Shown here piece by piece: positions 1,461 through 44,852 of a stretch of 64,000 nt of DNA. The position numbers and the translations under genes are program-made. Numbering within the stretch: the first letter of the stretch is position 1; the number at the start of each line of letters is the position of its first letter. Below the pieces are notes generated by a model. The model was not told the DNA's origin and ran no database searches. It saw only the letters and a program-made list of their open reading frames with translations. The DNA is taken from positions 1 to 64,000 of the IMG/VR virus record IMGVR_UViG_3300043447_000710; one strand, 5' to 3'. This DNA is from a virus (Duplodnaviria; Caudoviricetes).

Positions 1461-1680
1461 TTAGAGATAATCCAAATTATGTTTGTTTGAGTCTCTTCCC
1501 ACAACGCAATCAGCATGTCTTGGCATTACCCAACGCCTTAACCAATAAGGCTTAAAGTGAATCCGAACTAGAGAAGTATTCAGAAGTTTTAAACTGCTTG
1601 CGTCTCAATGTGGTAGTCACTACTTACGTTGCTAGAATTGGTTCTAACAAGCCCCGTCGCTTCAGCGCGGGGTTAGTGAC
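1461..1680 (-). ncRNA. IscB omegaRNA scaffold / IS200-IS605 left end
   Basis: starts GTCACTAACCCCGCGCTGAAGCGACGGGGCTTG (typical IscB element end hairpin); ~220 nt non-coding, directly upstream of the iscB ATG. Confidence 0.75.
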
Positions 1681-1721: not shown

Positions 1722-1760
1722 CAAGGGCGGGTTTTACAACAGTTGTAAAACCCGCCCTTG
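1722..1760. terminator. perfect 19-bp inverted repeat, probable terminator of the 1771-2466 gene
   Basis: CAAGGGCGGGTTTTACAAC-A-GTTGTAAAACCCGCCCTTG, 10 nt past the stop. Confidence 0.6.
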
Positions 1761-2466: not shown

Positions 2467-2769
2467 TCTGTTGACTCCTAAAAGGATAAATGAATAATTT
2501 GACTCGTATCGATACACCCCGACCCATCCCGGCCTCGCTTCAACCTACATCTAGCTATAGTACAAAAGACTCAGCTTATTAATGTAAGTATTACGAACCC
2601 TTACCGGCTTTGCTACTAACCGTGAGTAACTTCTAACTAGTACTAAAAACTGTTAGTAAATCGCCCACATGCTTACAGCAATGCCTCCCGGCTCAAAGTG
2701 GGTTAGAGCGTCGTAATAATACTTTGTTCTTACCTTCACTAGTAGTAATCCTAAGCTCGTCTTATAAAT

Positions 2770-2898
2770 CTAACCTATTAAGCTGCTGCTCCTTCTCGTG
2801 CAAAAGACGGAAGTTACGAGCAAAGTCAGTTCTTTTCCGTACGCAAAAGGTAGGAAGTAACTAACAACAGCTATTAAGTAGATACTAAAGACTAACAA
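2770..2898 (-). CDS. possible 42-aa hydrophobic peptide
   Basis: TTG start after AAGGGA, just downstream of repeat copy 1; MLVFSIYLIAVVSYFLPF. Confidence 0.25.
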   Translation of the reverse strand: MLVFSIYLIAVVSYFLPFAYGKELTLLVTSVFCTRRSSSLIG

Positions 2899-2912
2899 AA
2901 GATTCCCTTGCG

Positions 2913-3000: not shown

Positions 3001-6000
3001 TTAGCCTAGAGTACAGACAAAGTTTTCAGCTTGAACGGCTTCTTCGTTGTCTAGAATGGTCTTGAACATCTGACCTGCAATAGTGTCTTGCAGTAAAGCG
3101 TCCAACAGCATGTCTACGTTAACAGCGCGAGAACGTTCTAGCTCGTCTTCAGACTCAGCCATTTTTTCTAACTCGGCGCGCAGTGACACGAACTTGGCGT
3201 GTGGTCTGAAGCCGAGAATAGCATCAGCGTCGATGAACGGTACGAACTCTTCAAGCTTAGCTTGAGAGACGTCTAATAACATCTGACAGATGCTAAAGAC
3301 AAACCGTAACTCGATCGGCAACATGTCAAAATTGCCACGAGTATCCTTAGAGTAGGCGGTACAGCAACCAGCCCAAAGGAAAGCATCGCGGAACTTTTCA
3401 AAGTCACCAGCCATAAAGCCAAGTTCGGCTAACGCAGAACGGACATCGCTGTCTGGGACGTGAGTAAATTGACGCACTTTGCCTAAGCTAGGTAAGATCG
3501 TGTCAAATTTAGTCTTCTCTTTGCCGATAGCTTTAAGGATATCTTCAGGTAGATTTACATCCAAATCAGTATCTCCCTGCAACGCCCGGTTTAAATAACC
3601 AAGCGTTACTTTAGCCATAGCACTAGAGTAGCCACCCAAAGCGATTTCATAGATCTGCAAGATTCGAGCGCAGCCTAAGCTCGCACTCTCTTCCTGTAAC
3701 ATCCAGTTAAATGCTTTAGTCCAGGCAGGAGCTTCGCCTGTCAGCTCGGTAGTAACTTCGACAACGGTAGGCATCATCTCAGCCAGCAACATAGTCAAAA
3801 TTGCAACTCGATAAGTGTAGCCAACAGTAATGGATTGAACGCTTCCAGCAGCTAATTGCATTTGGATGAGCTTGTTCAGACCCATTACGTTTTTATTCCA
3901 GTTGAAACCAGACTTAGCCTTGAACTCCTTCCAGTTTCCAATCTGGAAGTGATCGGCGACGTACTGATCTGGAGCATTACCCAACCAATACTTCCAATCA
4001 AAAACGTTTACACCAGTAACTTCGTGCAGCATTTTAGCAACGCTGTCAAAGGTGCTTACTTTCAAGTTCTTGGCGGCTACTTGTTTGCTACAGTCAGCAA
4101 TCGAAATTGCGTCTCCGTCTAAGTCGCCAAAGTTAACGTACATAGAAATAGATCCCATGTAAGCCAAACCGTAGCAGAACAAAACGCCGTACTTCTTACG
4201 ATAGTAAGAAACGTCCGCATTGGTAAGAATGCGAAGCTTGCAAACGCAGCCTGCAAACATAGGCATCCGGCGGAATACCACATGCGTGATGTGCTGTGCA
4301 GGTTTACCTACAGCCTTGCCTAATCGGCCTGCTGTCTTCTCAGTCAGCCATAACTCACCGTCTGGTACGAGAATACACGCAGCAGCTTTCATGTAGCCAG
4401 TTTTAGACCCGCGCAATAACGAACGTAAGTGATTGCGTCCGTTATAGTAAGCCCAAAGCATATTGCTAACACTACCAGCCATCCGAATCATTTGGTCTTT
4501 TAGTGGCGCCATTTGATAGAACAACACTAGTTTCAACCAAGAAGTCAGAGCCTTAACAGCAGAATCGCCTTCTACTTTAAGAGAGCCTTTGTTCCAATCG
4601 TACAGAGTTTGTAAATGGATATTCAGATAATTACCACGAGTGGGATCTGTATTACCAATAAACATCATCAGCGTCCGATGTCCAAAGACTTTAGCAAGCG
4701 TACGCAAGAACTCATCATCGCTGACTAGTTCGTCTCTTTGATGGCGCTCTAATAAAGCTTCCATTTCGGTGCCTACTAAAACTTCGATGATGGCACTTAA
4801 GTTAGTGCCGTCTACAGCCTCAGCAGGTATAGCTCCAAATTGAATGCTATCAGCGCTTAGCATCCGGCGAAGGATACCATCAAAAGCAACGTTCTTACGA
4901 ACTTGCTTCATCTGCTCCTTAGCAGGCTCTTTGTAACCTACTAAAGACCACCAAACGGTTTCAGAAGGCAACATTGAAGTGCTAGACACGGCTTCCGGAA
5001 TAGTTCCGGCTTCGACCTCTACAGGGTAGAGAAGGTCTAAACCATCTTTACTACCGTAACCATAGCTACGGGTAAGCATGTGATGCTCGCCGTCCTCAGT
5101 TTGCCAGTAGATGTACACCGTATCTTTTTCGTCGATTTCACCAACTGCATCGGTAACTGCAAAAGCTTTACCGGCCGCCCAGTGCTTATCGGTATAAGTA
5201 CCTTCCCGCTCTAAGCCGAGAACGGCGTCGATTAACTCGGTAGGTAACTTGCCGTCTTCCATCACAGACAATTCGTCAGCAGAAACAAAACGCCAAGGAG
5301 CACCTTTGAGTACTGCCGTCCGATCCTCAGCAACGTACAGACTAGCTATGGAACGGTTGCGTGTATGCGGCGCTTTAAGGCGAGGCATGTCGGCTTCAGG
5401 AGTGGCCTCCTTAAACCAAGCGTAAGTACCAAAACGGACGTCAAAGTCCTCTAGTAATTCGCGATACAAACCAGCCGCACAAGCCTCGGCATCTACGTAC
5501 AACCATTCGTCGTAAGTAGGTAGTTCGATGCCTTTGAAAGCCGCTACTTTACGGTTAGTCTTAACTAACAAGTCGCGCATCGCCGGAACGGTACTACCAT
5601 AATTAGCACACTGGTGCCCCGCAAATTTAACAGGAGCTACAAAGTTGTCTTTCGCTTTAAAGCTATCGCCAGGAACGACTTTTTCGACGTTCTTAAAGCG
5701 GCCGTTGTTTAAGTTCTCATAGTCTAAGAACTTCCACATTTTGACTGCTAAGACGTTTAGCTTCAAGACAACTTCAGAGCGCAGCTTGAGCGTATTCGTA
5801 ACTTGGCAGCGTAACACGTAGTGAACGTAGAAGCGCCGCTCGGCACCCGGATCTACCTCCTCAGTAACTTTAATACTGTCTAGGTAGTATTTTGACGAGT
5901 CGTCACCCTCGTCGATCTGCAAGGTTCCATAGCAAGTAATAGAACCAGCTTTATCAGCAGTCATTAACTTACCGAGAACGTCGCCTTGTTTAACGATAGT

Positions 6001-8868
6001 ACCGCTATCGAATTGGTAACCAATGACTTTTTCGACATCATAGTTTCTCGTTACTAGAGGTTGACACGAGTACTTTTCGTCAACTTCTACCCAGAAACTT
6101 TCAATCGAATCGTTACCTACGACTTTTGCAGCTTGAGACTTCTTGCTGTATACGGCCTTTACGGTATCGATATTCATCAGACCCATGCCAGGAGAAAGCA
6201 ATAGGTTAGGCAGTACTAACGATTTAACGTTAGTTACTTTGTTGACGTTATTAACATCAGTCCGCCAACCAGCCTCAACTTCACAATTGGTCTCTAAAGC
6301 GTGGGCATAGCCCATAACTACACGCTTGACAAACTTTTCAACCTTTGAAGAAAGCGGCGCGCGCAGTTCGACTAAAACTACGTCCCAGAACTGTTCGTTC
6401 TTAGTACCGTAAGCCTCGTGCATAAGAACGCCAGCTTGCAAGCAAGCCATAGCAACTTCCGGCAAGGTGAAGATTGCTTCGACAATAGCACGCTCGTCGT
6501 TCCGATCGAACGAACCGAACTTCTTAGCAAAGCCCGCAGATTGCCACTGGTCTGCTAGCATCATAACGACACTCTGCTTAGACCAGCTATTCACAGCTAC
6601 GATCGACTCTTCGATAAAGTCCTTAACTGCCCCGTTAGGATTGGTAACCAAACCAAAGTGACGAGCTGCTGTCTCAGTCATGGACAGCGCGTTACAAGTA
6701 TGTAAGGCACCATCTTTAGCTAACTGCTTGTAGTAAGCAGTTACGTTGTAAAACTCGCGATCTCGATGCGAACCTTGCAAGGACAACCAAGAGGTTGGGT
6801 GTTGCGCGGTACGGCGCATCAATTCGATCGGCATGGGCATGTTAACTTTGACAGCAACATACTTATTCGCTTCTAACAATGCGCGCCCGCTAGCAGCACT
6901 CATGTCACGCTCGCAGGAAACCTGCTGTACTGGCATGTTGTTGCGAACGAAACGCGAGAAGTAACCACCTTTAGCGTCGGCGAGTTTAGGATTGCTGTTA
7001 TGCTCGCGGTTTATATTGGCAAAGCCGTAAACTTCAAACGCATACCATAAAGCATCCAAGCTAGAAAGTTTAACGCAGTGTTCTACGCTCAACTTACCTT
7101 TGACGCCATCCGCACCAGCTACGAACGGGCGCATATGATACATAGCTAATGAGTCCATTGGCTGCATGTACGCTTGCGCTGGATAGTTACCAACTGGAGC
7201 AGTAACGATAAACTTGTTGCCGCCACTGACAGTTAATTCGAAACCGCGCTCGGTTTCGACAAAAACAAACGGAGCAACGCCTGGTTTGGCGTTTTTACCT
7301 AGGTAGCGTACGACTTCTTGACCTAGCAGCTCGAACGCCGCCTTAACAGAGTCATACTCCAATCCCGATAAAGGCATCAGCCAAGCTTCGTTTACAGGTA
7401 CGAAAGTACACAAAGGTTGATAACCTTTTTCTTGTAAGAAGTAGCCTAAAGCTTCGTACAGGCGCTGAGGAACGATAACGTTTCCATCCCAGTACTGTAA
7501 GCTCATTGCTTGCTTAATGAGCTTGACATACGATTTGGCTTCGTTGCGTTCTAAACCTTCAAAGCGAATCGGTTCGCCTTGGCGCGCCCGGTTCTTTTTG
7601 ACGATCGCATCCAATACTTCTTCGTACTTATAGTTAGGTACTGAGCTAGGAATGATATCCCAAACGATCGACTCCTTAGTATTTGGAGCTTTATCATGGG
7701 ACGCACGCATCCGCGTAACGATGTTCGTACCGCTACGCTGAGCCAATAAGCGCTGCAACTCGCGGCCGCCACTAATCAAAGGCACGAATGCCTCTAGTAA
7801 TATTCCTCCGTCTTTTAAGATAGCGTTTATTTGAAGTGGAACTCCGTAACCATTACCGTACGCACCACGCATGGCCATTACCATGTGGGTAATAGTTTTC
7901 ATGTAGTACTGCTTATCGCAGTAAGGTGCTAACGGACGCTCGAACGCAGTTGCAAAGTTTTTGCAACCAGCAAAGATTGCGTTACGAGCTTCTTGCTCCA
8001 AATACTCTGCTGGTGTAAGAATTGCTTGTTCCATTGTTGTTGACTCCATAGGGGTGTTGGTAGACGTCCCCGTCAATTGGGTTTTACCGGTTTGCTCAAC
8101 CGAACCTACCTCCACAGCGGGAGTAGGAAAGTTCTGACGGCTTTGAAAAGCTATCATTTGAGCCTCATATGCAGCCATGTCGTAATGCTCGTTAGCATAC
8201 ATGCGGCTTTGACGCTGCTGGATCGTCGGCAAGTAACGAGCCACAGGAGCTTTAAGGTCTGCCAACCGCCCACGCTCGACTCTGAGCTGGCGTTCGCTAA
8301 TTTTAGACTTCTCCTTATCGCTCTTAGCCTTAACTGCCTTAGGAGTTTTCGCCTTATTATCAGGAACGACTTTAACTACATTTTCAGTAGCTGCGGTAGT
8401 TTTAATGCTGCTAGGCTTAAGAAGCTTCAGAGTCTTCCGTAAATAACTAGGCCGCTCTAAAGCCTTTACTGCAATCTCCTTGACTTGAAGTTTTGGCTTG
8501 CTTACGCTAGAACGTTTACGCAATAACGGACGTTGTGCCCAATCTAAAGCGATCGGATTGTACGGTATGCGTAACGCCTGACGCTTCAGTACTTTGACTG
8601 GAGCTACTGCTGCTGCTACACGGCTGGCTTTACGCAAAGCTTTAGCAGCCCGTTTCTGACGAGCTGCTAACTTAACTTCAAAGCTTAAGCCGGCTGGCTT
8701 ACGGCTTTTTAACCGCGTAACACGGTTGATTTGCCGAGAGGCTTTTTGAATCGAGCGAATCCGCGCCGCCTTGTTAGACGCACGCTTTAGACTTACTTTG
8801 CTCGAAAGCAAAGAAAGCAAAGAAAGCAAAGAAAGCAAAGAAACAGTAAGAGAAAGGTTAGTAAACAT
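3001..8868 (-). CDS. single-chain two-barrel (double-psi beta-barrel) RNA polymerase, putative non-virion RNAP
   Basis: beta'-like VFRRMP (RRMP at 4261-4272) then NFGDLDGD (4111-4134); beta-like K-x7-K KLRSEVVLK (5761-5787); alternative internal start at 8034 with a GGAG RBS. Confidence 0.8.
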   Translation of the reverse strand: MFTNLSLTVSLLSLLSLLSLLSSKVSLKRASNKAARIRSIQKASRQINRVTRLKSRKPAGLSFEVKLAARQKRAAKALRKASRVAAAVAPVKVLKRQALRIPYNPIALDWAQRPLLRKRSSVSKPKLQVKEIAVKALERPSYLRKTLKLLKPSSIKTTAATENVVKVVPDNKAKTPKAVKAKSDKEKSKISERQLRVERGRLADLKAPVARYLPTIQQRQSRMYANEHYDMAAYEAQMIAFQSRQNFPTPAVEVGSVEQTGKTQLTGTSTNTPMESTTMEQAILTPAEYLEQEARNAIFAGCKNFATAFERPLAPYCDKQYYMKTITHMVMAMRGAYGNGYGVPLQINAILKDGGILLEAFVPLISGGRELQRLLAQRSGTNIVTRMRASHDKAPNTKESIVWDIIPSSVPNYKYEEVLDAIVKKNRARQGEPIRFEGLERNEAKSYVKLIKQAMSLQYWDGNVIVPQRLYEALGYFLQEKGYQPLCTFVPVNEAWLMPLSGLEYDSVKAAFELLGQEVVRYLGKNAKPGVAPFVFVETERGFELTVSGGNKFIVTAPVGNYPAQAYMQPMDSLAMYHMRPFVAGADGVKGKLSVEHCVKLSSLDALWYAFEVYGFANINREHNSNPKLADAKGGYFSRFVRNNMPVQQVSCERDMSAASGRALLEANKYVAVKVNMPMPIELMRRTAQHPTSWLSLQGSHRDREFYNVTAYYKQLAKDGALHTCNALSMTETAARHFGLVTNPNGAVKDFIEESIVAVNSWSKQSVVMMLADQWQSAGFAKKFGSFDRNDERAIVEAIFTLPEVAMACLQAGVLMHEAYGTKNEQFWDVVLVELRAPLSSKVEKFVKRVVMGYAHALETNCEVEAGWRTDVNNVNKVTNVKSLVLPNLLLSPGMGLMNIDTVKAVYSKKSQAAKVVGNDSIESFWVEVDEKYSCQPLVTRNYDVEKVIGYQFDSGTIVKQGDVLGKLMTADKAGSITCYGTLQIDEGDDSSKYYLDSIKVTEEVDPGAERRFYVHYVLRCQVTNTLKLRSEVVLKLNVLAVKMWKFLDYENLNNGRFKNVEKVVPGDSFKAKDNFVAPVKFAGHQCANYGSTVPAMRDLLVKTNRKVAAFKGIELPTYDEWLYVDAEACAAGLYRELLEDFDVRFGTYAWFKEATPEADMPRLKAPHTRNRSIASLYVAEDRTAVLKGAPWRFVSADELSVMEDGKLPTELIDAVLGLEREGTYTDKHWAAGKAFAVTDAVGEIDEKDTVYIYWQTEDGEHHMLTRSYGYGSKDGLDLLYPVEVEAGTIPEAVSSTSMLPSETVWWSLVGYKEPAKEQMKQVRKNVAFDGILRRMLSADSIQFGAIPAEAVDGTNLSAIIEVLVGTEMEALLERHQRDELVSDDEFLRTLAKVFGHRTLMMFIGNTDPTRGNYLNIHLQTLYDWNKGSLKVEGDSAVKALTSWLKLVLFYQMAPLKDQMIRMAGSVSNMLWAYYNGRNHLRSLLRGSKTGYMKAAACILVPDGELWLTEKTAGRLGKAVGKPAQHITHVVFRRMPMFAGCVCKLRILTNADVSYYRKKYGVLFCYGLAYMGSISMYVNFGDLDGDAISIADCSKQVAAKNLKVSTFDSVAKMLHEVTGVNVFDWKYWLGNAPDQYVADHFQIGNWKEFKAKSGFNWNKNVMGLNKLIQMQLAAGSVQSITVGYTYRVAILTMLLAEMMPTVVEVTTELTGEAPAWTKAFNWMLQEESASLGCARILQIYEIALGGYSSAMAKVTLGYLNRALQGDTDLDVNLPEDILKAIGKEKTKFDTILPSLGKVRQFTHVPDSDVRSALAELGFMAGDFEKFRDAFLWAGCCTAYSKDTRGNFDMLPIELRFVFSICQMLLDVSQAKLEEFVPFIDADAILGFRPHAKFVSLRAELEKMAESEDELERSRAVNVDMLLDALLQDTIAGQMFKTILDNEEAVQAENFVCTLG
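8804..8843. repeat. 9-bp tandem repeat (GAAAGCAAA)x4
   Basis: direct reading; encodes SLL repeats in the RNAP N-terminal extension. Confidence 0.9.
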
Positions 8869-9182: not shown

Positions 9183-9211
9183 GTTAACTCCTTATGTGGA
9201 TTCAAGTTGTC

Positions 9212-9254
9212 GCGGTAATCGCACATAAAAAGGAAGGAGATATAATCTCCTTCC
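9212..9254 (-). promoter_or_regulatory. hairpin-ACCRC element, copy 3
   Basis: GCGGT-AATCGCA-CAT-AAAAA-GGAAGGAGAT ata ATCTCCTTCC. Confidence 0.75.
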
Positions 9255-9268
9255 AGCTTAAGAGTTAA

Positions 9269-9955
9269 TTAGATTTCGTCATGCGCTGCCCCGTTATGAC
9301 GAACCTCAGCCACCATAAACGGACGCCGCTTATAGCCGTTACCGGAGTACATCAAAGACGTACCCGAAAGCTGGGCAAAGGCACCCTTGAATCCAGGACA
9401 ATCCAAGGCTAGACCGGCGGCCTCACCTATAGATTTGCCAGAGCGACTAGCCTGCTCTGCGTTGGATACTTTCGTATCCCAAATAAGAGCCATAAACTCT
9501 TCGCCTTTTGGGAGGCTGAGAACGAATTGCTTATCGTTCCCAGCCTCCTTTAGAACCCAAGAGCGAATTTTTTGTTCGCTCTTAGAGTCTAAATACCCTA
9601 GATCGAAGAGTTGATTTACATCAACGTAGCCAGTCGTTAAGTTCCGCCAGCGGCTTTTCTCAGCCTCGGAATATTCGCCAGCTTTAAGCTGGGTCATTTT
9701 TCCTTGTTCTGGAATGTAACCGATGCCGATTTTTACCTCGGCATATAAATCCTTACCTTCAGCTACTAACTGAGGTTTGAATAGATATAACCTGACGCAA
9801 CCACTCTGACCATCGTAAATCGCCGAACCAGGAATGCGTAAAAACGCTTTCCCAGCAAAGGCTCCGTCTTCAGGGTACGAAACCCATTCGATTAACTCGT
9901 CGGCATAGTACTTGCCGGCGATGTGTTCTTGAACCTGAGTTAAGTTGACGGACAT
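9269..9955 (-). CDS. hypothetical protein with acidic C-tail (HDEI), paralog of 1771-2466
   Basis: AAGGAG RBS; shared motifs with 1771-2466. Confidence 0.8.
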   Translation of the reverse strand: MSVNLTQVQEHIAGKYYADELIEWVSYPEDGAFAGKAFLRIPGSAIYDGQSGCVRLYLFKPQLVAEGKDLYAEVKIGIGYIPEQGKMTQLKAGEYSEAEKSRWRNLTTGYVDVNQLFDLGYLDSKSEQKIRSWVLKEAGNDKQFVLSLPKGEEFMALIWDTKVSNAEQASRSGKSIGEAAGLALDCPGFKGAFAQLSGTSLMYSGNGYKRRPFMVAEVRHNGAAHDEI

Positions 9956-10014
9956 AATTAATGACTCCTTACTTGTTTATGCGACGCTACCTAGCTAAGC
10001 TTTACAAGCTAGCT

Positions 10015-10058
10015 GCGGTAGATTCGCATAAAAAGGAAGTAGCTTTAAGCTACTTCCT
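10015..10058 (-). promoter_or_regulatory. hairpin-ACCRC element, copy 4
   Basis: GCGGT-AGATTCG-CAT-AAAAA-GGAAGTAGCTT t AAGCTACTTCC. Confidence 0.75.
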
Positions 10059-10065
10059 TAATTAG

Positions 10066-10311
10066 TTAGTCAATAGTTCGCAGAAGATGATAACCCATTT
10101 CCGCCAACCAGGCTCTAGCCAGCCTGTTTAGATCGTGTGGATGTAAGTCTTCAAGCTTTCGCTCGTACTTATACCCTTCTAGGTAAATTTGCCAATCTAC
10201 CTTTAACATTCGGCTTTCTCCTATGTACGTCCATAAGACGTACACATAGTCTATGGTGCCTTGTGGTAACCAAGGAGTGCCGCCAGCATAGTTTTCAGGC
10301 AACTTATACAT
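10066..10311 (-). CDS. hypothetical early protein
   Basis: 81-aa ORF between repeat copies 4 and 5. Confidence 0.65.
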   Translation of the reverse strand: MYKLPENYAGGTPWLPQGTIDYVYVLWTYIGESRMLKVDWQIYLEGYKYERKLEDLHPHDLNRLARAWLAEMGYHLLRTID

Positions 10312-10332
10312 AAATTTCAGCTTAGTTAAGCT

Positions 10333-10376
10333 GCGGTAAGTACATATAAAAAGGAGGGAGCAAAAGCTCCATCCTT
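10333..10376 (-). promoter_or_regulatory. hairpin-ACCRC element, copy 5
   Basis: GCGGT-AAGTACA-TAT-AAAAAGGAGGGAGC aaaa GCTCCATCCTT. Confidence 0.75.
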
Positions 10377-10382
10377 CATTAA

Positions 10383-10970
10383 TTAATCAGCCCTTATGCA
10401 ATTAACAAAGGCTCGACTTTCATCGAGCCCTTTCAGGACTGGGTAGTAATGCCACCGTTCGAATAGCTCCTCCCAGAAAGCAGCGTACACGACCAACGTC
10501 CCATAGCTGTCAAAGCCGTAGAACAGCTCGTCAAGTATGTCCTCAACAAAGACGCTATGGTGTTGTACCAGCTCGTAGATAAGCTGCTCGCGAGTAAAGG
10601 AAATAGCTTTAGCGTAATACTTACGTTTAAGCAATTTGCTTTCGTTTTCAAAGACTCCATCTTCGTGAAGATAGAAAGTCTTCGGAAACACTGGCTTTTG
10701 ATACCAGCGACCGAAGTCACTAGTATCAAAAGCCATTACCGCAAACAGCTCGGCTGGCGAGCAGTAATCATACAAGCCAAGTTTGGCTTTTAGATTAAGA
10801 CTTTTTCCTAATAACGTAGCTTCTTCTTTAGGCGAGACGCCTTCACCCCAGAAGAGATGTTCGATCTCATGCCAACTAATTGGCAGGGTGCTGGCTGAGA
10901 TACTTGCGACCTTACCATCAAGGTAAAGTGTGAAAGAATTCCAGCCGAAAAAAGTAATACTGTTAGACAT
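10383..10970 (-). CDS. hypothetical early protein
   Basis: GGAGTCAACACC-ATG leader; 195 aa. Confidence 0.75.
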   Translation of the reverse strand: MSNSITFFGWNSFTLYLDGKVASISASTLPISWHEIEHLFWGEGVSPKEEATLLGKSLNLKAKLGLYDYCSPAELFAVMAFDTSDFGRWYQKPVFPKTFYLHEDGVFENESKLLKRKYYAKAISFTREQLIYELVQHHSVFVEDILDELFYGFDSYGTLVVYAAFWEELFERWHYYPVLKGLDESRAFVNCIRAD

Positions 10971-10998
10971 GGTGTTGACTCCATATAATTTACATGAG

Positions 10999-11041
10999 GT
11001 GGTAACCTCATATAAAAAGGGAAGGAGATTATCTCCTTCCC
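10999..11041 (-). promoter_or_regulatory. hairpin-ACCRC element, copy 6
   Basis: GTGGT-AACCTCA-TAT-AAAAA-GGGAAGGAGAT t ATCTCCTTCCC. Confidence 0.75.
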
Positions 11042-11047
11042 TTCTCC

Positions 11048-11170
11048 TTATTTAGCCGAGACTTTTACAAAGCTGTAAAAGTCTCGGCATCCAACACCAA
11101 CAGCCGCTACAACTCCTGTAGCGACTAAGATTTGGATTGTGACGCACAAAAGTACAGCGAACTTATTCAT
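11048..11170 (-). CDS. small membrane peptide (40 aa), absent from the ORF track
   Basis: AAGGAG RBS; MNKFAVLLCVTIQILVATGVVAAVGVGCRDFYSFVKVSAK; fills one repeat unit exactly. Confidence 0.7.
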   Translation of the reverse strand: MNKFAVLLCVTIQILVATGVVAAVGVGCRDFYSFVKVSAK

Positions 11171-11200
11171 GAGTTTGACTCCTTTTTATGTGGATTTGAA

Positions 11201-11242
11201 GCGGTAACCGCACATAAAAAGGAAGGAGGATTTCTCCTCCCT
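11201..11242 (-). promoter_or_regulatory. hairpin-ACCRC element, copy 7
   Basis: GCGGT-AACCGCA-CAT-AAAAAGGAAGGAGGATTTCTCCTCCCT. Confidence 0.75.
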
Positions 11243-11249
11243 AACTAGG

Positions 11250-11585
11250 TTAGCTGTGTTTAGCTTTGCGCTGAGCTTTACGCTTAACGCTTATGCGTTT
11301 CTTTAGAGCCTTGCGGTCTAAAGTTATTTTCCACTCCTGACTATGCCGACGAAGACTCGCCAGCGTATCGTACTCCCACTCAGAAGCTACACGCTTCTGA
11401 CCAGTTGTGTTAGCGTCTTCTAAATGCGCTAACAAGTCTTCTTCAAGAGTACCTAAATATTCTTGAAGAAGACTAACATCCACAGCTTCTTTAGCCGCGC
11501 GATGCAACAACACTCGTCCCCAACGGAGACGATCGCTGTTATCTAATGCGAAGTTAAAGTTTTCTAGCGCTTGAGAGAAGTTCAT
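11250..11585 (-). CDS. hypothetical early protein with basic C-terminus
   Basis: GGAGTCAACACC-ATG leader; 111 aa. Confidence 0.75.
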   Translation of the reverse strand: MNFSQALENFNFALDNSDRLRWGRVLLHRAAKEAVDVSLLQEYLGTLEEDLLAHLEDANTTGQKRVASEWEYDTLASLRRHSQEWKITLDRKALKKRISVKRKAQRKAKHS

Positions 11586-11688
11586 GGTGTTGACTCCATA
11601 TAATTTACATGACTTTACAACTCAGAGTAATTCAATTGCTGGATTCTACGTCACCATAGACCTATAGCTAACTTACTTTACATGTGTT

Positions 11689-11734
11689 GCGGTAAGGACA
11701 TATAAAAAGGAGGGGGCTAAGCCCCTTCCTTTTT
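11689..11734 (-). promoter_or_regulatory. hairpin-ACCRC element, copy 8
   Basis: GCGGT-AAGGACA-TAT-AAAAAGGAGGGGGCT a AGCCCCTTCCTTTTT. Confidence 0.75.
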
Positions 11735-11738
11735 AAAG

Positions 11739-12452
11739 CTATTCTCGGAGACATTCCTCATAGAAGATGTCTGCGATCTGCTCTAATGTGAGCCGCTCTA
11801 CCGCGAACTCACGCTGAACCCAACTCCAGTAGGAGCTGAAGTTTTCGAAGTTTATAGGCTTGTATGTCGAGCAGTAAACTTCGAAAACAGCCTGAAGATC
11901 CACCTCAGGTGTTTCTTCCACTTGAGTGGAGTCATACTCCTCCAGCTCAGGGTAATAACGCTCTAGCCACTCTTTCATGGCTAGAGCGTGCCGCTGCTCT
12001 GCAGGGAACTTTTCTTGGAGCCACTCAGAGGTGGCATCCCGCGGGGAAAGCTCTTGCCCCGCGTAGCTGACGCGGAACCGTTCGCTTCCGTTTGGGTTAT
12101 AGGCCCAAACAACGTTTTCGATCGATGATCGGCGGCGCGAACCGATCCCATCGCCCTCATGGAAGCTCTCAATGCTTCCATGCTCATAACTCCATTTGAT
12201 GGAGTTGTATTTTTCGCAATCATCTGTGAGGGATTGCGGCACCGGATTAGCCTCAAGCCAAGGCTCAATAACGTCGATATTGATTACGACAAGCCAGTTG
12301 TCGTAATCAATATTTACCCCTTGATGAGGGTAAATTATAAGATCGGCGTCCCGATCAAAACAATAGATAACGGCGAATTTCTCGCCGGCATCTATTTTTA
12401 CTATCTCTCCTCCAAGGAGGTTGGCAATCTGAAGGGTAACTTTAGCAGTCAT
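11739..12452 (-). CDS. hypothetical acidic early protein
   Basis: start re-called at ATG 12452 (MTAKVT) behind GGAG. Confidence 0.75.
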   Translation of the reverse strand: MTAKVTLQIANLLGGEIVKIDAGEKFAVIYCFDRDADLIIYPHQGVNIDYDNWLVVINIDVIEPWLEANPVPQSLTDDCEKYNSIKWSYEHGSIESFHEGDGIGSRRRSSIENVVWAYNPNGSERFRVSYAGQELSPRDATSEWLQEKFPAEQRHALAMKEWLERYYPELEEYDSTQVEETPEVDLQAVFEVYCSTYKPINFENFSSYWSWVQREFAVERLTLEQIADIFYEECLRE

Positions 12453-12551
12453 GATTAACTCCATTTTTATGTTTACGTGACATCTCCACTACTTCAAGTT
12501 TGATTGCCGGTTTCCATCTAAAGATGGCCTAGCTAACTTACTTTATTAGTA

Positions 12552-12596
12552 GCGGTTAAGTCACATAAAAAGGAAGTCCGCAAGATGCGGACTTCC
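12552..12596 (-). promoter_or_regulatory. hairpin-ACCRC element, copy 9
   Basis: GCGGT-TAAGTCA-CAT-AAAAA-GGAAGTCCGCA aga TGCGGACTTCC. Confidence 0.75.
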
Positions 12597-12601
12597 AATA
12601 C

Positions 12602-12844
12602 TTAATAACGCCCTTCGTAATGGGCGTAATAACATTGAACACCTAGGTGTTCAATGGTTTTGAGCTCCCCAAGGAGCTCTGCTCTGGCTTCCCAGAGCAG
12701 GCCTAGATCTTCGGGATCTAAGCCGAGTTCCGTCTTTCGGAACTCCAGATCGAGCTGCAGCTCGATCTGCGCTACTTGCAAGCGCAGGGCTTGCGCTTGC
12801 AAGTAAATACCGTACGCCTTGCGTACGTTGTAAGTAACTTTCAT
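12602..12844 (-). CDS. hypothetical helical early protein
   Basis: AGGAGAGG RBS; 80 aa. Confidence 0.7.
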   Translation of the reverse strand: MKVTYNVRKAYGIYLQAQALRLQVAQIELQLDLEFRKTELGLDPEDLGLLWEARAELLGELKTIEHLGVQCYYAHYEGRY

Positions 12845-12943
12845 AACCTCTCCTTAGGCTATGTGTTTACAGCTTTTCCTTAACTTCAAGTTCCCTCCCC
12901 GATTCCCATACTCAGATGGTCTAGCAAAGGTACTTTATCCGTA

Positions 12944-12986
12944 GCGGTTAAGCTATATAAAAAGGAAGCCCCTTTACGGGGCTTCC
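12944..12986 (-). promoter_or_regulatory. hairpin-ACCRC element, copy 10
   Basis: GCGGT-TAAGCTA-TAT-AAAAA-GGAAGCCCC tttac GGGGCTTCC. Confidence 0.75.
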
Positions 12987-12993
12987 AAAAAAA

Positions 12994-13317
12994 TTATTTA
13001 ACAAACACCCACTTTACGGGCATTTGTAGGACCTCTGAGGAGGTCCATTTTTCCCCTTCGGCCAGGCGCCGAGGGGTTGTGACCAGGCCGGCTAAGACTT
13101 GGTCAAAACCCCAAACGGGGTTAACCATCACCCGATTAGCGGGGATGGTTACCCCACTAAGGGTGGATAAGATTTCGGCGAAGTCGGCATGGCCGACCGC
13201 CGAGGTGAACTCTTGCTCCGTTAGGAGCACTTTGACCTCTTCCGAGGTCAAAGTTTTGACCAGCACCGGGGTCTCGCCCCAGATGGTGTTTGGTAACGAG
13301 TTCATAACGTACAGCAT
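12994..13317 (-). CDS. acrIII-1: AcrIII-1 / DUF1874 (STIV B116/YddF-like) cA4 ring nuclease, anti-type III CRISPR
   Basis: LYVMNS, FTSAVGH (catalytic His), IPANR and RRLAEG motifs; 107 aa, typical size. Confidence 0.85.
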   Translation of the reverse strand: MLYVMNSLPNTIWGETPVLVKTLTSEEVKVLLTEQEFTSAVGHADFAEILSTLSGVTIPANRVMVNPVWGFDQVLAGLVTTPRRLAEGEKWTSSEVLQMPVKWVFVK

Positions 13318-13418
13318 ACTGCCCTCCTTGGGCTAAAATTTACATGACTTCTGCACTACTTCAAGTTCAATCCCCGGATCTCCTGTTCAAAGGGCCTAGC
13401 AAATCTAGTTTATCCGTA

Positions 13419-13461
13419 GCGGTTTGGTCAGATAAAAAGGAAGCCCCTTTATGGGGCTTCC
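13419..13461 (-). promoter_or_regulatory. hairpin-ACCRC element, copy 11
   Basis: GCGGT-TTGGTCA-GAT-AAAAA-GGAAGCCCC tttat GGGGCTTCC. Confidence 0.75.
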
Positions 13462-13464
13462 AAT

Positions 13465-13818
13465 TTAAAAAAACTCTACGAGTTCTTTTATTAGGTCTAG
13501 ATTACGATCTAGACCATTAAGAACTCTGAGACTTTCGTCCCAGAATTCTTTAATTGTAGGATCGGGGTTATCCCCGAGGACTGCCTCATGCACGAGGAGA
13601 ACCAAATTCTCCTCGGCTTTACTGGGCTTTAGCCCAGTGACTGCATGATTGCCTTCATGCAGTACTTCGAAGCCTTGAACTTCGACAGTCCAAGGCTTAT
13701 TTACTGAGAGGGGATCTAGTCCCCACTCGGCAACAAAAGTTTGGGCGATAACATACGCCCAGAAGGCCCGTTCCCGGAGCCAAATGGCGTATGTTATCGC
13801 CGGAATTAATTCCAGCAT
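13465..13818 (-). CDS. hypothetical early protein
   Basis: 117-aa ORF occupying one repeat unit. Confidence 0.7.
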   Translation of the reverse strand: MLELIPAITYAIWLRERAFWAYVIAQTFVAEWGLDPLSVNKPWTVEVQGFEVLHEGNHAVTGLKPSKAEENLVLLVHEAVLGDNPDPTIKEFWDESLRVLNGLDRNLDLIKELVEFF

Positions 13819-13843
13819 AATTCACCTTGCTACTTCTGCTGTA

Positions 13844-13886
13844 GCGGTAAAGTCGCTGAAAAAGGAAGGAGCCTTGGCTCCTTCCT
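13844..13886 (-). promoter_or_regulatory. hairpin-ACCRC element, copy 12
   Basis: GCGGT-AAAGTCG-CTG-AAAAA-GGAAGGAGCC tt GGCTCCTTCC. Confidence 0.75.
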
Positions 13887-13892
13887 AAAAAA

Positions 13893-14558
13893 TTATTGTT
13901 TAGAGTTCTTATAACTCAGGTAAGTGTCGATCCACTCTGGGATCATCCAGCCCAGTTGGGGGAGGTCTACGACGACGTAGCGCTCCCCATTACCACCAGA
14001 AAAGGCCTTGGTGTCGTCGCCATCGGCGACTAACCACTCCTCTCGACTCCACCGCTCGGATGGATTATCGACAAAGCGATAATCTACCCGAGCAACTGGC
14101 TCGGTAAAGAATATCGTCTCCCAGGTGCATGGGACATCTGTGTACAGATGTCCATTGCCGGCCTCAATTGAGGCCTGTAGGGGTTTTATCCCCTCGTGGA
14201 GTATTGGGATGTCTGGGGTGTGCACCGCTCGGAGTACGAACTCCGACGTGTCCTCAAAATTAAGGGAGTACGCACAGGTGTACTCCTTAGGAATCTCGAC
14301 CTCCGAAAAGGCCTTCAAGCCGTGTTTCGGCTTGGAAGTAAAGAATTCCCACACTATAGTGGGAACAGCGTAACAGTAGAAGGGAGTTAACTCCTCCCCT
14401 TTACTGTTAAAAAATATCATCTCCCGCTGAGGGCGGAATTCGCCCTCATGGAGAATCTTCATGTAATCGTCCCGGCGGACGAACAGCAGAGGGCTGCTGT
14501 TCGCTTGAGTGAGGCGCCCAAGCACGACTTGTTCGGTTCCGTTGAAATCTAAATTCAT
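13893..14558 (-). CDS. hypothetical early protein
   Basis: 221-aa ORF occupying one repeat unit. Confidence 0.75.
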   Translation of the reverse strand: MNLDFNGTEQVVLGRLTQANSSPLLFVRRDDYMKILHEGEFRPQREMIFFNSKGEELTPFYCYAVPTIVWEFFTSKPKHGLKAFSEVEIPKEYTCAYSLNFEDTSEFVLRAVHTPDIPILHEGIKPLQASIEAGNGHLYTDVPCTWETIFFTEPVARVDYRFVDNPSERWSREEWLVADGDDTKAFSGGNGERYVVVDLPQLGWMIPEWIDTYLSYKNSKQ

Positions 14559-14573
14559 ATTTCTACCTTTTTA

Positions 14574-14622
14574 GCGGTAAGGACGCTAAAAAAGGAAGAG
14601 CTAAATATAGCTCTTCCTTTTT
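14574..14622 (-). promoter_or_regulatory. hairpin-ACCRC element, copy 13
   Basis: GCGGT-AAGGACG-CTA-AAAAAGGAAGAGCTA aata TAGCTCTTCCTTTTT. Confidence 0.75.
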
Positions 14623-14624
14623 AA

Positions 14625-14726
14625 TTAAGGCTCGATACTTGATGGCCGCCAACCATCTTTAAATCGACGAACGGCATAGCCGGCAAACTGCTCGGCTATG
14701 TTTCGGCACTTTTGAAAAGGTGTCAT
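14625..14726 (-). CDS. small protein (33 aa), absent from the ORF track
   Basis: GGAGA RBS; MTPFQKCRNIAEQFAGYAVRRFKDGWRPSSIEP; fills one repeat unit. Confidence 0.6.
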   Translation of the reverse strand: MTPFQKCRNIAEQFAGYAVRRFKDGWRPSSIEP

Positions 14727-14767
14727 AAGAATCTCCAATTAATTTGTGTGTAAACAACTTACCTATA

Positions 14768-14809
14768 GCGGTTAAGTCACTAAAAAAGGAAGGGGCTAAG
14801 CCCCTTCCT
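14768..14809 (-). promoter_or_regulatory. hairpin-ACCRC element, copy 14
   Basis: GCGGT-TAAGTCA-CTA-AAAAA-GGAAGGGGCT a AGCCCCTTCC. Confidence 0.75.
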
Positions 14810-14814
14810 AAAAA

Positions 14815-15183
14815 TTAATTAAAGATAGTAACGACTATCTGGGCTTCCACCCAGATAACTTCGTCTGCTTTGGGGCTGCCCAACCCCGAAGCGTTTAACT
14901 CTTTCCCGGCGACGACGGGCGCTGAGCCCTCGTCCCAGGACAATGTTATATGTGGGGTGTTGGGGCTTGTTAAGCCCTCGGGCAATACTGCCCGGAGGCA
15001 GTCTGTTTCCTGCCCCTTAAAGTAGGGCCCCAACCCTACTTTAATAATCTCGCCCTCCTGGGCGAGCAGATCTTCAGGCAGTTCGCCAAAGGCTAGGGTT
15101 ACTCCCCAGCCTTGAGGTTTGTTATTAAACGTACCTTCTGTAGAAGGTGCCTTTAATAAAACCGCTTTGATTAAACCTTTCAT
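14815..15183 (-). CDS. 2H phosphoesterase-like protein
   Basis: start re-called at 15183 (GGAGTCAACACC-ATG); second motif PHITLS intact, first motif degenerate (WGVTLAFG). Confidence 0.55.
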   Translation of the reverse strand: MKGLIKAVLLKAPSTEGTFNNKPQGWGVTLAFGELPEDLLAQEGEIIKVGLGPYFKGQETDCLRAVLPEGLTSPNTPHITLSWDEGSAPVVAGKELNASGLGSPKADEVIWVEAQIVVTIFN

Positions 15184-15214
15184 GGTGTTGACTCCACATC
15201 TATATTTACATGAG

Positions 15215-15256
15215 GTGGTAACCTCATATAAAAAGGAAGGGGATTTCTCCCCTTCC
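15215..15256 (-). promoter_or_regulatory. hairpin-ACCRC element, copy 15
   Basis: GTGGT-AACCTCA-TAT-AAAAA-GGAAGGGGA tttc TCCCCTTCC. Confidence 0.75.
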
Positions 15257-15261
15257 AAATA

Positions 15262-15516
15262 TTATGGATACAGTAAAGACCAGCCGGTCATACCGGCTAC
15301 TGCATTATTAATGCAAGTCGTTGAGGCGACTATTTCGCCCCCATCTTCTATACAATGGGCTGAATACTCGCCCCCTTGTTTCACGAACAGAGCGTGAGAG
15401 ACCTCTCGGTCTCCTGCGCTCCACTCAGTCTTCGTTACGAAGACTGAGACGCTTTCCGCCTTTTCCTTGGTAAATTTACCTGGGAAGTTGGCAGAGAGAT
15501 ATTCGAACTTATTCAT
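15262..15516 (-). CDS. hypothetical early protein
   Basis: GGAGTCAACACC-ATG leader; 84 aa. Confidence 0.7.
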   Translation of the reverse strand: MNKFEYLSANFPGKFTKEKAESVSVFVTKTEWSAGDREVSHALFVKQGGEYSAHCIEDGGEIVASTTCINNAVAGMTGWSLLYP

Positions 15517-15544
15517 GGTGTTGACTCCAATATATTTACATGAG

Positions 15545-15591
15545 GTGGTAACCTCATATAAAAAGGAAGTAGGTATTACCTACTCCCTTTT
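15545..15591 (-). promoter_or_regulatory. hairpin-ACCRC element, copy 16
   Basis: GTGGT-AACCTCA-TAT-AAAAAGGAAGTAGGTA t TACCTACTCCCTTTT. Confidence 0.75.
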
Positions 15592-15593
15592 AT

Positions 15594-15866
15594 CTAAGCT
15601 CGTTTAACCTGTAAGTAATACTTACCCCCGAGCTCTCGCTCGGAAATAATTATTACTTCATCGATGTTCTGAAAGAACATCAGGGCGTCACGCCCAAAGT
15701 CACAGCACTCAAACAGAACTACTTCGGAGTGGAAACTCCGAACTAGTTTCAAAAATGAATCCAACTCACTGTGATCGGTATCACAGTAGTTGAACGTGTT
15801 GACAACTACGTAGTTGTCAAGCAAACTGCTTACTTTACAACCTTCTGCGTTTAAAACTACTAACAT
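15594..15866 (-). CDS. hypothetical early protein
   Basis: AAGGAG RBS; 90 aa. Confidence 0.7.
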   Translation of the reverse strand: MLVVLNAEGCKVSSLLDNYVVVNTFNYCDTDHSELDSFLKLVRSFHSEVVLFECCDFGRDALMFFQNIDEVIIISERELGGKYYLQVKRA

Positions 15867-15883
15867 ATCTAAGCTCCTTTAAA

Positions 15884-15924
15884 GCGGTAATTACGCATAA
15901 AAAGGAAGGGGGATTTCTCCCCCT
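15884..15924 (-). promoter_or_regulatory. hairpin-ACCRC element, copy 17
   Basis: GCGGT-AATTACG-CAT-AAAAAGGA-AGGGGGA tttc TCCCCCT. Confidence 0.75.
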
Positions 15925-15931
15925 AAAAAAA

Positions 15932-16210
15932 TTATTTAACTGTCATATTACAATCATTTACTTCGATCGAGTAACGATCGAAGTAACGATCGGCTTTTAA
16001 CCGATCGTTTAACTGAGTTACAAATCGGCACGCAATCTGCCGGTCTGAAGGATGCATCTCTGCATCCTTCAGACGAGCGAGCTTACCGTTAACCTTCTTC
16101 TCTAAACGCTCAGCGCTCCGCTGAGCGTCCTGCATCTCACCATAACCAAGAAGGGTTACAATGGATGTGACAACTAAAGAACTACGAACGATAACAGCGA
16201 AAACTTTCAT
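15932..16210 (-). CDS. hypothetical protein with N-terminal hydrophobic segment
   Basis: GGAG RBS; MKVFAVIVRSSLVVTSIVTLLG. Confidence 0.7.
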   Translation of the reverse strand: MKVFAVIVRSSLVVTSIVTLLGYGEMQDAQRSAERLEKKVNGKLARLKDAEMHPSDRQIACRFVTQLNDRLKADRYFDRYSIEVNDCNMTVK

Positions 16211-16238
16211 GGTAATTACTCCATATAATTTACATGAG

Positions 16239-16282
16239 GTGGTAACCTCATATAAAAAGGGAGTAGATATTATCTACTTCCT
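16239..16282 (-). promoter_or_regulatory. hairpin-ACCRC element, copy 18 (first in transcription order)
   Basis: GTGGT-AACCTCA-TAT-AAAAAGGGAGTAGATA t TATCTACTTCCT; no gene directly upstream. Confidence 0.75.
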
Positions 16283-16382
16283 AATTATTATGAGTAATCC
16301 AAAGGGGTCTAAAAACTTTTCTCGGTAGTCCTAGGTTTTTCAAATCTAAAGACCCCCTAGGATGTACTACCTAATATAAACC

Positions 16383-16546
16383 CAATTTTCAGCTGAGCTA
16401 ATTTTCTCCAGCTTTGTTTTTGTAGTACTGGCTAGTAAAACATAACCCAATTTCCAGCTAAGTTAATTTTCTCCAGCTTTGCTTTTGTATTACACACTAA
16501 ATAAAACGTTACACAATTTTCAGCTAAGTTAATTTTCTCCAGCTTC
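16383..16546. repeat. three ~65-bp-period direct repeats
   Basis: CAATTTYCAGCTRAGYTAATTTTCTCCAGCTT at 16383, 16448 and 16514. Confidence 0.85.
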
Positions 16547-16586
16547 GTTCATAAAGTAACGTTGTGCTTTTACAACTGTTGTAAGT

Positions 16587-44834: not shown

Positions 44835-44852
44835 CTTATAACGGTTGTAAAA

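Follow-up and report, generated by a model that had tools for sequence, protein, structure and literature searches.

A second, copy-specific hairpin in the repeated intergenic element of a myovirus gene-cassette array

Two kinds of composite joint between small phage genes come closest to the locus analysed here. The promoter-early stem-loop (PeSL) cassettes of T4-type phages (PMC2839356, PMC4122927) are small ORFan early genes of a hyperplastic region, flanked by a repeated intergenic element that contains a sigma-70 -35/-10 promoter and a terminator stem-loop and has a Shine-Dalgarno (SD) sequence and start codon at its 3' end; closely related strains differ by gain or loss of whole cassettes, with junctions inside the element and even within the stem-loop. 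In the Thermus phage P23-45, small pre-early genes are parted by a conserved terminator hairpin with a T-run, with the promoter of the virion polymerase directly behind it or at most ~30 nucleotides (nt) further on; this promoter (TTATTCCTTTA) is short, T/C-rich and ends in the A at which transcription starts. The messages are leaderless, starting at the ATG, and the pre-early region also encodes a second, non-virion two-barrel polymerase (PMC10770324). The window studied here is the whole stretch of 64,000 nt that forms the first 64 kb of the 152.6-kb IMG/VR virus record IMGVR_UViG_3300043447_000710. Its minus strand carries, from position 16282 to 2913, an array of 17 genes, 16 of them small and the last encoding a 1,969-amino-acid polymerase, which 18 same-strand copies of an intergenic element (W1-W18) flank on both sides. 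By analogy, the array is best described as a variant of the PeSL or P23-45 type of joint. Its element contains a terminator-like hairpin (HP1) and, in most copies, a second hairpin (HP2) that reuses the U-tract of the first as one arm and closes the leader. HP2 exists, its complementarity is copy-specific, it holds its position relative to the SD, and it persists in relatives; we infer that it functions in RNA.

The element, found by pattern search, reads HP1 (GGAAG..CTTCC with a variable top), T5, ATRYG, N4 and TTACCRC. The search gave 18 matches between 2913 and 16282 on the minus strand against 1.3 expected, in 15 distinct sequences. The first T of the T-run lies at 2932, 8898, 9231, 10034, 10352, 11018, 11220, 11708 and 12571 for W1 to W9, and at 12963, 13438, 13863, 14593, 14787, 15234, 15564, 15903 and 16258 for W10 to W18. 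In HP1 the base (GGAAG/CTTCC) is conserved and the top is variable and covaries; in all 18 copies it is a hairpin of 9-12 base pairs (bp) followed by T5-6, the form of an intrinsic (Rho-independent) terminator. ATRYG, N4 and TTACCRC follow at fixed spacing, and the 20-nt core has the same geometry in 18/18 copies. The pattern has no further match in the 152.6-kb record, and an exact-pattern scan of IMG/VR returned 78 single chance matches and no contig with several. Rfam contains no match to the elements at E up to 1, barring two chance-level matches to small-RNA models.

As with PeSLs, the element and its stem-loop flank small ORFan genes, an SD and start codon stand at its 3' end, and the cassette insertions and deletions that distinguish the window from its sister strain L083 have their junctions in elements. 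In contrast to PeSLs, no element contains a sigma-70 (-35/-10) consensus promoter (11 sites in 15 kb against 18.5 expected), and there is a fixed 20-nt core that is kept in distant relatives. With 18 strong terminator-like hairpins in series, transcription should either restart in every element or be carried out by an enzyme that ignores them. The CTTCC-T5-A tract matches the P23-45 promoter TTATTCCTTTA only with a 2-nt gap, and the resemblance is thus a lead rather than a test. Moreover, P23-45 messages are leaderless, whereas the cassettes have SD leaders. PeSLs are described with one stem-loop and no second hairpin is described for P23-45; as far as the literature could be checked, a second hairpin that reuses the terminator U-tract and closes the leader is undescribed for either system.

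HP2 pairs UUUAURYG plus variable bases with variable bases plus CRYRUAAA. With the last three U of the tract taken as positions 1-3 of the 5' arm (U1-U2-U3-A4-U5-R6-Y7-G8-N9-12), the G8-C pair is present in 20/22 distinct elements, including those of relatives; beyond this C the 3' arm reads R-Y-R-U-A-A-A, and the bases upstream of it are complementary to N9-12. HP2 belongs to the minimum-energy fold in 12 of the 18 copies (W3, W4, W6-W11, W13, W15, W16 and W18), that is in 9/15 distinct sequences. It is weak in W14 and W17 and lacking in W1, W2, W5 and W12; W5 and W12 form another leader hairpin instead. An earlier note on this DNA had proposed that the element's U-tract pairs in a copy-specific way with the downstream ribosome-binding site (RBS) and start region, and all the stems it wrote out are found in the minus-strand sequence at the copies it named. 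The stem by which it had copy 5 pair with its own ATG is too weak to show up in the fold. The 3' arm also reaches the RBS region less generally than the note implied: it usually stops 0-12 nt short of the SD, and an overlap occurs only in W3, W7, W13 and W17.

The loop enclosed by HP2 varies widely: it is 4 nt in the W6 type, 7-33 nt in W13, W7, W3 and W4, and 74-80 nt in W8-W11, where the inserts are hairpins themselves and stack on HP2. Whatever the loop length, the 3' arm remains 0-12 nt ahead of the SD, and it lies anywhere from 0 to 84 nt from the fixed core. Among the short forms (all coordinates on the minus strand; z from dinucleotide shuffles of the leader), HP2 of W6 (10989..11016; z -3.38) has 12 bp with one G-U and a UACC loop, and it recurs in near-identical form in W15 (15205..15232), W16 (15535..15562) and W18 (16229..16256), the last being the array's first element, which no gene precedes. 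In W13 (14569..14591; z -1.72) the stem is of 8-9 bp, with a 3' arm that runs from the CGC of ACCGC into an SD-like AAGG. W3 (9191..9229; z -1.71) pairs 9218-9229 with 9191-9201 through 11 pairs, enclosing 16 nt, and its outer pairs reach the SD. W7 (11180..11223) has 13 perfect pairs, 11211-11223 with 11180-11192, which invade the base of HP1 and cover the AAGGA of the SD. In W4 (9976..10032; z -4.25), an internal loop separates a 9-bp lower stem from an upper hairpin, in which the ACC of the motif is paired. In the long forms, W9 (12472..12569; z -4.29) has 10 bp with one G-U around a 78-nt insert, which is a long hairpin closed by CCGCUACU/AGUAGUGG; W10 (12868..12957; z -1.64) has 8 bp with one G-U around 74 nt; W11 (13339..13436; z +0.18) has nine pairs and a C-U mismatch around 78 nt and is no stabler than its shuffles; and W8 (11604..11706; z -0.91) has a distal 3' arm at 11604-11614 that encloses 80 nt and an alternative proximal one at 11677-11685. 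The ~80-nt insert shared by W8-W11 (11586-11700, 12453-12560, 12845-12950 and 13318-13430) contains conserved boxes, one UAGCUAGGCC-like and the other GAACUUGAAGU, and forms a separate module without an Rfam family. The motif TTGAAG-N-TAAAYW in these inserts was considered as a promoter and rejected because of its spacings (14, 16, 16 and 22 nt).

The pairing is better between the arms of one copy than between arms of different copies. When the 3' regions were exchanged among the 15 distinct copies, which keeps composition and shared boxes, the summed duplex energy rose from -114.0 kcal/mol for own partners to -88.4 +/- 6.6 kcal/mol (p ~5e-5), and with elements of the sister strain and the distant relative added z was -4.4 (22 elements) or -4.1 (18 elements). 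The contrast is smaller when only the variable positions 6-12 are counted (z -2.1 to -2.3, p 0.014-0.021); several Watson-Crick pair types occur across copies at each of positions 6, 7 and 9-12. The copy-specific complementarity claimed earlier is thus borne out beyond controls: the stem is real and copy-specific, with a modest covariation signal in the part that truly varies. The leaders that stand out most clearly from their dinucleotide shuffles are those of W4, W9 and W6; those of W3, W7, W10 and W13 lie at z between -1.6 and -2.0, and those of W8, W11, W14 and W17 are indistinguishable from their shuffles.

Relatives of the polymerase in a protein collection number three, at 99%, 61% and 51% identity; elements were compared in the sister strain L083 (99% polymerase identity) and in a relative at 38% identity (L080-L082). 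The cassette set of L083 is partly different, and the blocks of homology stop at or inside elements at differing points. Recombination between repeated regulatory elements leaves this pattern in PeSLs as well (PMC2839356, PMC4122927). The strain differences put the cassette junctions within or ahead of HP1, so that both arms of HP2 are inherited with the downstream gene. W8 has a hybrid HP1, derived from two others and with an A-C mismatch; in the L083 orthologue of W14, a C-G to U-A change in HP1 is compensated. For HP2, two L083 orthologues surpass the window copies (a perfect 9-bp distal arm in W14 and a perfect 11-bp helix in W13), and two A-to-G changes in ACCRC retain the pair as G-U. 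In the 38% relative the core recurs in three elements, and the two gene-proximal ones form short second hairpins directly after the U-tract with unrelated arms (AUGUG/CACAU and GUAGC/GCUAC) and with ACC again at the junction of loop and 3' arm. In the Microcystis phage Ma-LMM01, whose early block gp054-gp063 was defined by co-expression in RNA-seq (PMC5780444), the element itself is absent from the early region and only a looser theme of tandem hairpins is present. The gp063/gp062 spacer (L079, 12478-12575, minus strand) folds into two perfectly abutting 13-bp hairpins without a U-tract (z -7.55), a hint that folding of the spacers between cistrons recurs in this group of phages. These hairpins lie ~27 nt ahead of the gp062 start and have a degenerate second copy in the gp062/gp061 spacer.

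The reading we favour, tentatively and at a rough probability of 0.4, is that HP2 is a hairpin in the 5' untranslated region of each cassette's RNA that stabilizes or insulates the message. An action in RNA is suggested by geometry, since the 3' arm tracks the SD rather than the core and since folded loops of ~80 nt suit an RNA but would be hard to accommodate in a cruciform or in a DNA palindrome bound by protein. HP2 would form in any RNA that holds the U-tract, i.e., in transcripts crossing the HP1-U5 junction, with the last three U, AURYG and one to four variable bases as its 5' arm and the complementary variable bases plus CRYRUAAA as its 3' arm. The whole spacer, be it 4 or ~80 nt, would thereby be closed into one hairpin abutting HP1, leaving only 0-12 nt, the SD and the AUG single-stranded. 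The RNA targets of RNase E are single-stranded and A/U-rich (PMC10939160), and in cyanophage infection mRNA is shielded by forming a duplex (PMC3113571); HP2 would hide the AU-rich tract and the spacer from this single-strand-specific enzyme. Whether transcription ends and restarts or the RNA is cut between HP1 and HP2, HP1 would form the end of the upstream message and a 5'-proximal hairpin the beginning of the downstream one, so that both ends would be protected. By restart or processing alike, HP2 would come to lie at or near the 5' end of the cassette message, just upstream of the ribosome site, which would keep the same context whichever cassette recombination puts upstream.

Intercistronic processing hairpins, such as the RNase III sites of the T7 early region, and 5'-terminal stabilizer stem-loops of the ompA type are likewise stable structures just 5' of a ribosome site. 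W4 and W9 resemble them in having a lower stem, an internal loop and an upper stem; an RNase III site typically has some two turns of duplex, often with an internal loop, and is cleaved in vivo. The short forms differ in having only 8-12 bp (12 bp in the W6 type), and HP2 differs throughout in abutting a terminator-like hairpin and using its U-tract as an arm. The phage encodes no RNase III. A role as a processing substrate, as proposed earlier, is compatible with the predicted folds and may form part of the favoured reading. HP2 is followed by no U-tract and is therefore not a terminator, and since it lies downstream of its own terminator, the antitermination suggested in the earlier note could act only on the next one.

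Several observations weigh against a stabilizing or insulating hairpin. The signal in the variable part reaches only p ~0.02, several stems are AU-rich and weak, and 6/18 copies, among them the leader of the polymerase gene itself, do without HP2. The sister strain has three uncompensated changes (G6 to C in W4, U7 to C in W18, and an A-C in the arm-swapped L083_6184), and the constraint on HP2 looks loose. If the core acted as a promoter and transcription began at ACCRC or further downstream, primary transcripts would not contain the 5' arm. Sense and antisense strands fold equally well (sense favoured in 12/22 elements, p 0.53). The G-U wobbles that the earlier note had stressed do occur in the window, in one shared column (U5-G), but A-C and C-A mismatches occur in the sister strain and folding shows no strand asymmetry; with no difference in energy between sense and antisense, G-U asymmetry was rejected as proof of an RNA-level structure.

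Much of this would also fit a complementarity without selected function, left over from the history of the array: a palindromic ancestor may have been copied together with the leader, templated mutation may have corrected a quasi-palindrome, or a U-tract may simply pair with A-rich sequence ahead of an SD. The uncompensated changes and the arm-swapped recombinant, the symmetry of the strands, the six copies without HP2, the modest statistic for the variable part, a lower stem made only of U/A pairs and the near-identity of four of the best copies as duplicates all point this way. However, own-partner pairing is clearly better overall (z ~ -4), positions 9-12 use several differing Watson-Crick pair types, the second hairpins of the 38% relative have unrelated arms, and the long inserts are still closed by the same two arms. 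Such a by-product is judged unlikely, though it is the likeliest of the alternatives.

A structure acting in DNA appears rather improbable. Here the core would be a promoter, pause or terminator signal of the phage's two-barrel polymerase, with the inverted repeat aiding melting or extrusion, or the element would be a recombination hotspot. The promoters of the N4 virion polymerase are hairpins extruded on one strand, with conserved hairpin loops. In the array, the fixed geometry of the 20-nt core in 18/18 copies and its retention in the 38% relative favour such a signal, as does the combination of 18 terminator-like hairpins, which imply restart or a resistant polymerase, with elements that contain no sigma-70 promoter. 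In P23-45, the virion polymerase promoter follows the pre-early terminator hairpins directly or 25-30 nt later (PMC10770324). Palindromes are recombinogenic, and cassette junctions do fall in elements. However, arms up to 80 nt apart disfavour cruciform extrusion, the 3' arm tracks the SD and not the core, the loops of HP1 are unconserved, unlike those of the N4 promoter hairpins, and nothing ties HP2 itself to initiation. The core's ATNTGA also resembles the upstream conserved sequence (UCS) of yeast linear plasmids and poxvirus early promoters, and U5NU resembles the vaccinia early terminator (PMC6211774); both resemblances are leads only.

The earlier note also proposed a switch in which read-through RNA sequesters the RBS. 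In a regulatory switch of this kind, read-through RNA containing the 5' arm would be translated or decay unlike RNA started inside the element, through occlusion of the SD. Occlusion is conceivable for the four copies in which HP2 overlaps the SD, and the predicted SD accessibility falls by at least 0.10 (0.10-0.32) in W7, W18, W4 and W17 (4/15 copies). However, the SD lies outside the helix in most copies, its mean unpaired probability is 0.42 with the 5' arm against 0.48 in RNA starting at ACCRC, and the change is at most 0.06 or is positive in 11/15 copies. Predicted accessibility is thus alike with or without the arm, which argues against a general RBS switch and leaves this explanation with little probability.

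Equally poor prospects attach to HP2 as a protein- or polymerase-binding RNA hairpin presenting UWACCRC, either as a translational operator or as a put/nut-like read-through signal for the next terminator. UWAC is usually unpaired and CRC usually begins a helix, the motif sitting at the junction of loop and 3' arm in the short forms of both phages, and the Y7-R19 pair is never C-A, being U-A in W18, U-G in L083_7583 and C-G in L083_2543 across orthologues. However, W4 and W12 have the motif fully paired and W3 and W7 have it in large loops, which leaves no single presentation, and no RNA-binding protein is apparent among the cassette products, ORFans apart from one STIV_B116-like protein. A proximal 3-bp helix between RYG and a CRC 7 nt further on is compatible with most copies and too weak on its own. 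A more specific proposal, at similarly long odds, is that HP2, with UWACCRC where loop and arm meet, serves the phage's single-chain two-barrel polymerase either as a hairpin promoter or, in the RNA, as a cis-acting signal that re-arms it to pass the next terminator; the shuffled anti-defence array could then be expressed by the phage enzyme alone, and would stay silent under the host polymerase.

Very remote is the earlier idea of an attC-like folded single-strand recombination site: the array shares with integron cassettes its same-strand, promoterless-looking single genes, imperfect inverted repeats with conserved ends and a very variable centre, and whole-cassette differences between strains, but it has no integrase beside it (only a 16-bit PF00589 match, below cut-off, at 103404-103577 of the genome, ~87 kb away), no R''/R' core sites (RYYYAAC/GTTRRRY), the arms being UUUAURYG/CRYRUAAA, and no fixed crossover point, as junctions vary and fall even inside HP1, as in the hybrid of W8.

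The phage itself, a cyanophage, is a myovirus, as indicated by PHROG matches to portal, major head and sheath proteins, and its capsid protein shares only ~27% identity with its counterparts in the Microcystis phages Ma-LMM01 and MaMV and in a Microcoleus phage. Among the 16 small cassette genes, 15 have no Pfam match, and the remaining one (12994-13317, minus strand) encodes a STIV_B116-like protein (DUF1874, AcrIII-1 ring-nuclease family; E 2.7e-10), with which an anti-defence role for the array would fit. The last gene (3001..8868, minus strand) has an invariant D-x-D-G-D within NFGDLDGD, the signature of two-barrel RNA polymerases, and the 1,969-amino-acid product is identified as one by this motif. 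It probably starts at ATG 8868 rather than at ATG 8910, the choice of the open reading frame (ORF) finder; ATG 8868 lies 10 nt past the ACCGC of W2, without an SD. Its first codons (8800-8868, minus strand) include a 9-nt tandem repeat coding for (LLS)n, and the sister strain has five extra nt ahead of the ATG. The sole match seen for a 3,488-amino-acid ORF was to an exonuclease-like PHROG. The array, the polymerase and the central 1,500 amino acids of the 3,488-amino-acid protein have no blastn/tblastn match among GenBank phages, and protein-guided scans of IMG/VR and GTDB genomes found nothing.

Directly upstream of W18 are three tandem units of ~65 nt (16379..16559, minus strand), 80-100% alike and each with an internal inverted repeat, which are candidates for the array's control or promoter region. 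Their position is analogous to that of the 6.5 copies of a 42-bp repeat preceding the Ma-LMM01 early genes. Just upstream of them lies one copy of a 15-bp palindrome, TTAYAAC-N-GTTGTAA, which occurs at at least eight sites (window 1734-1748, 16570-16584, 44836-44850 and 56299-56313; genome 76806, 112585, 128738 and 149190), often ends 2-6 nt ahead of an SD-less start codon, and is a candidate operator or phage-polymerase promoter. At the other end of the array, W1, the last element, is followed by ~430 nt of non-coding sequence (2500-2912, minus strand) and then by a gene at 2466 with a leader of the cassette type (GGAGTCAACAGAATG); the intervening stretch may represent a non-coding RNA or a long leader. 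Further on, a HEARO (IscB-type omega RNA) match at 1485-1680 (minus strand; E 9e-8, under the gathering score) is followed by a short ORF from ~1450 to 1190 on the same strand, which stops after ~90 codons and whose N-terminus looks like the start of an IscB/IsrB-type nuclease.

Many phages carry shuffled arrays of early or anti-defence genes, and it is poorly understood how correct expression of each gene survives the shuffling. The repeated joint described here is more than a terminator, in that it combines a core conserved in very distant relatives with a leader hairpin that takes the U-tract as an arm. HP2 would amount to a new principle if the phage polymerase proved to read it, and is otherwise a detail of interest. 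As a stabilizer or insulator of messages, it would offer a compact, naturally evolved way to make expression units portable; as a signal read by the phage polymerase, it would be the first cis-element for two-barrel polymerases in cyanophages. Either way, the arm and its compensatory changes offer precise, mutable targets for work on the early transcription of Ma-LMM01-like phages.

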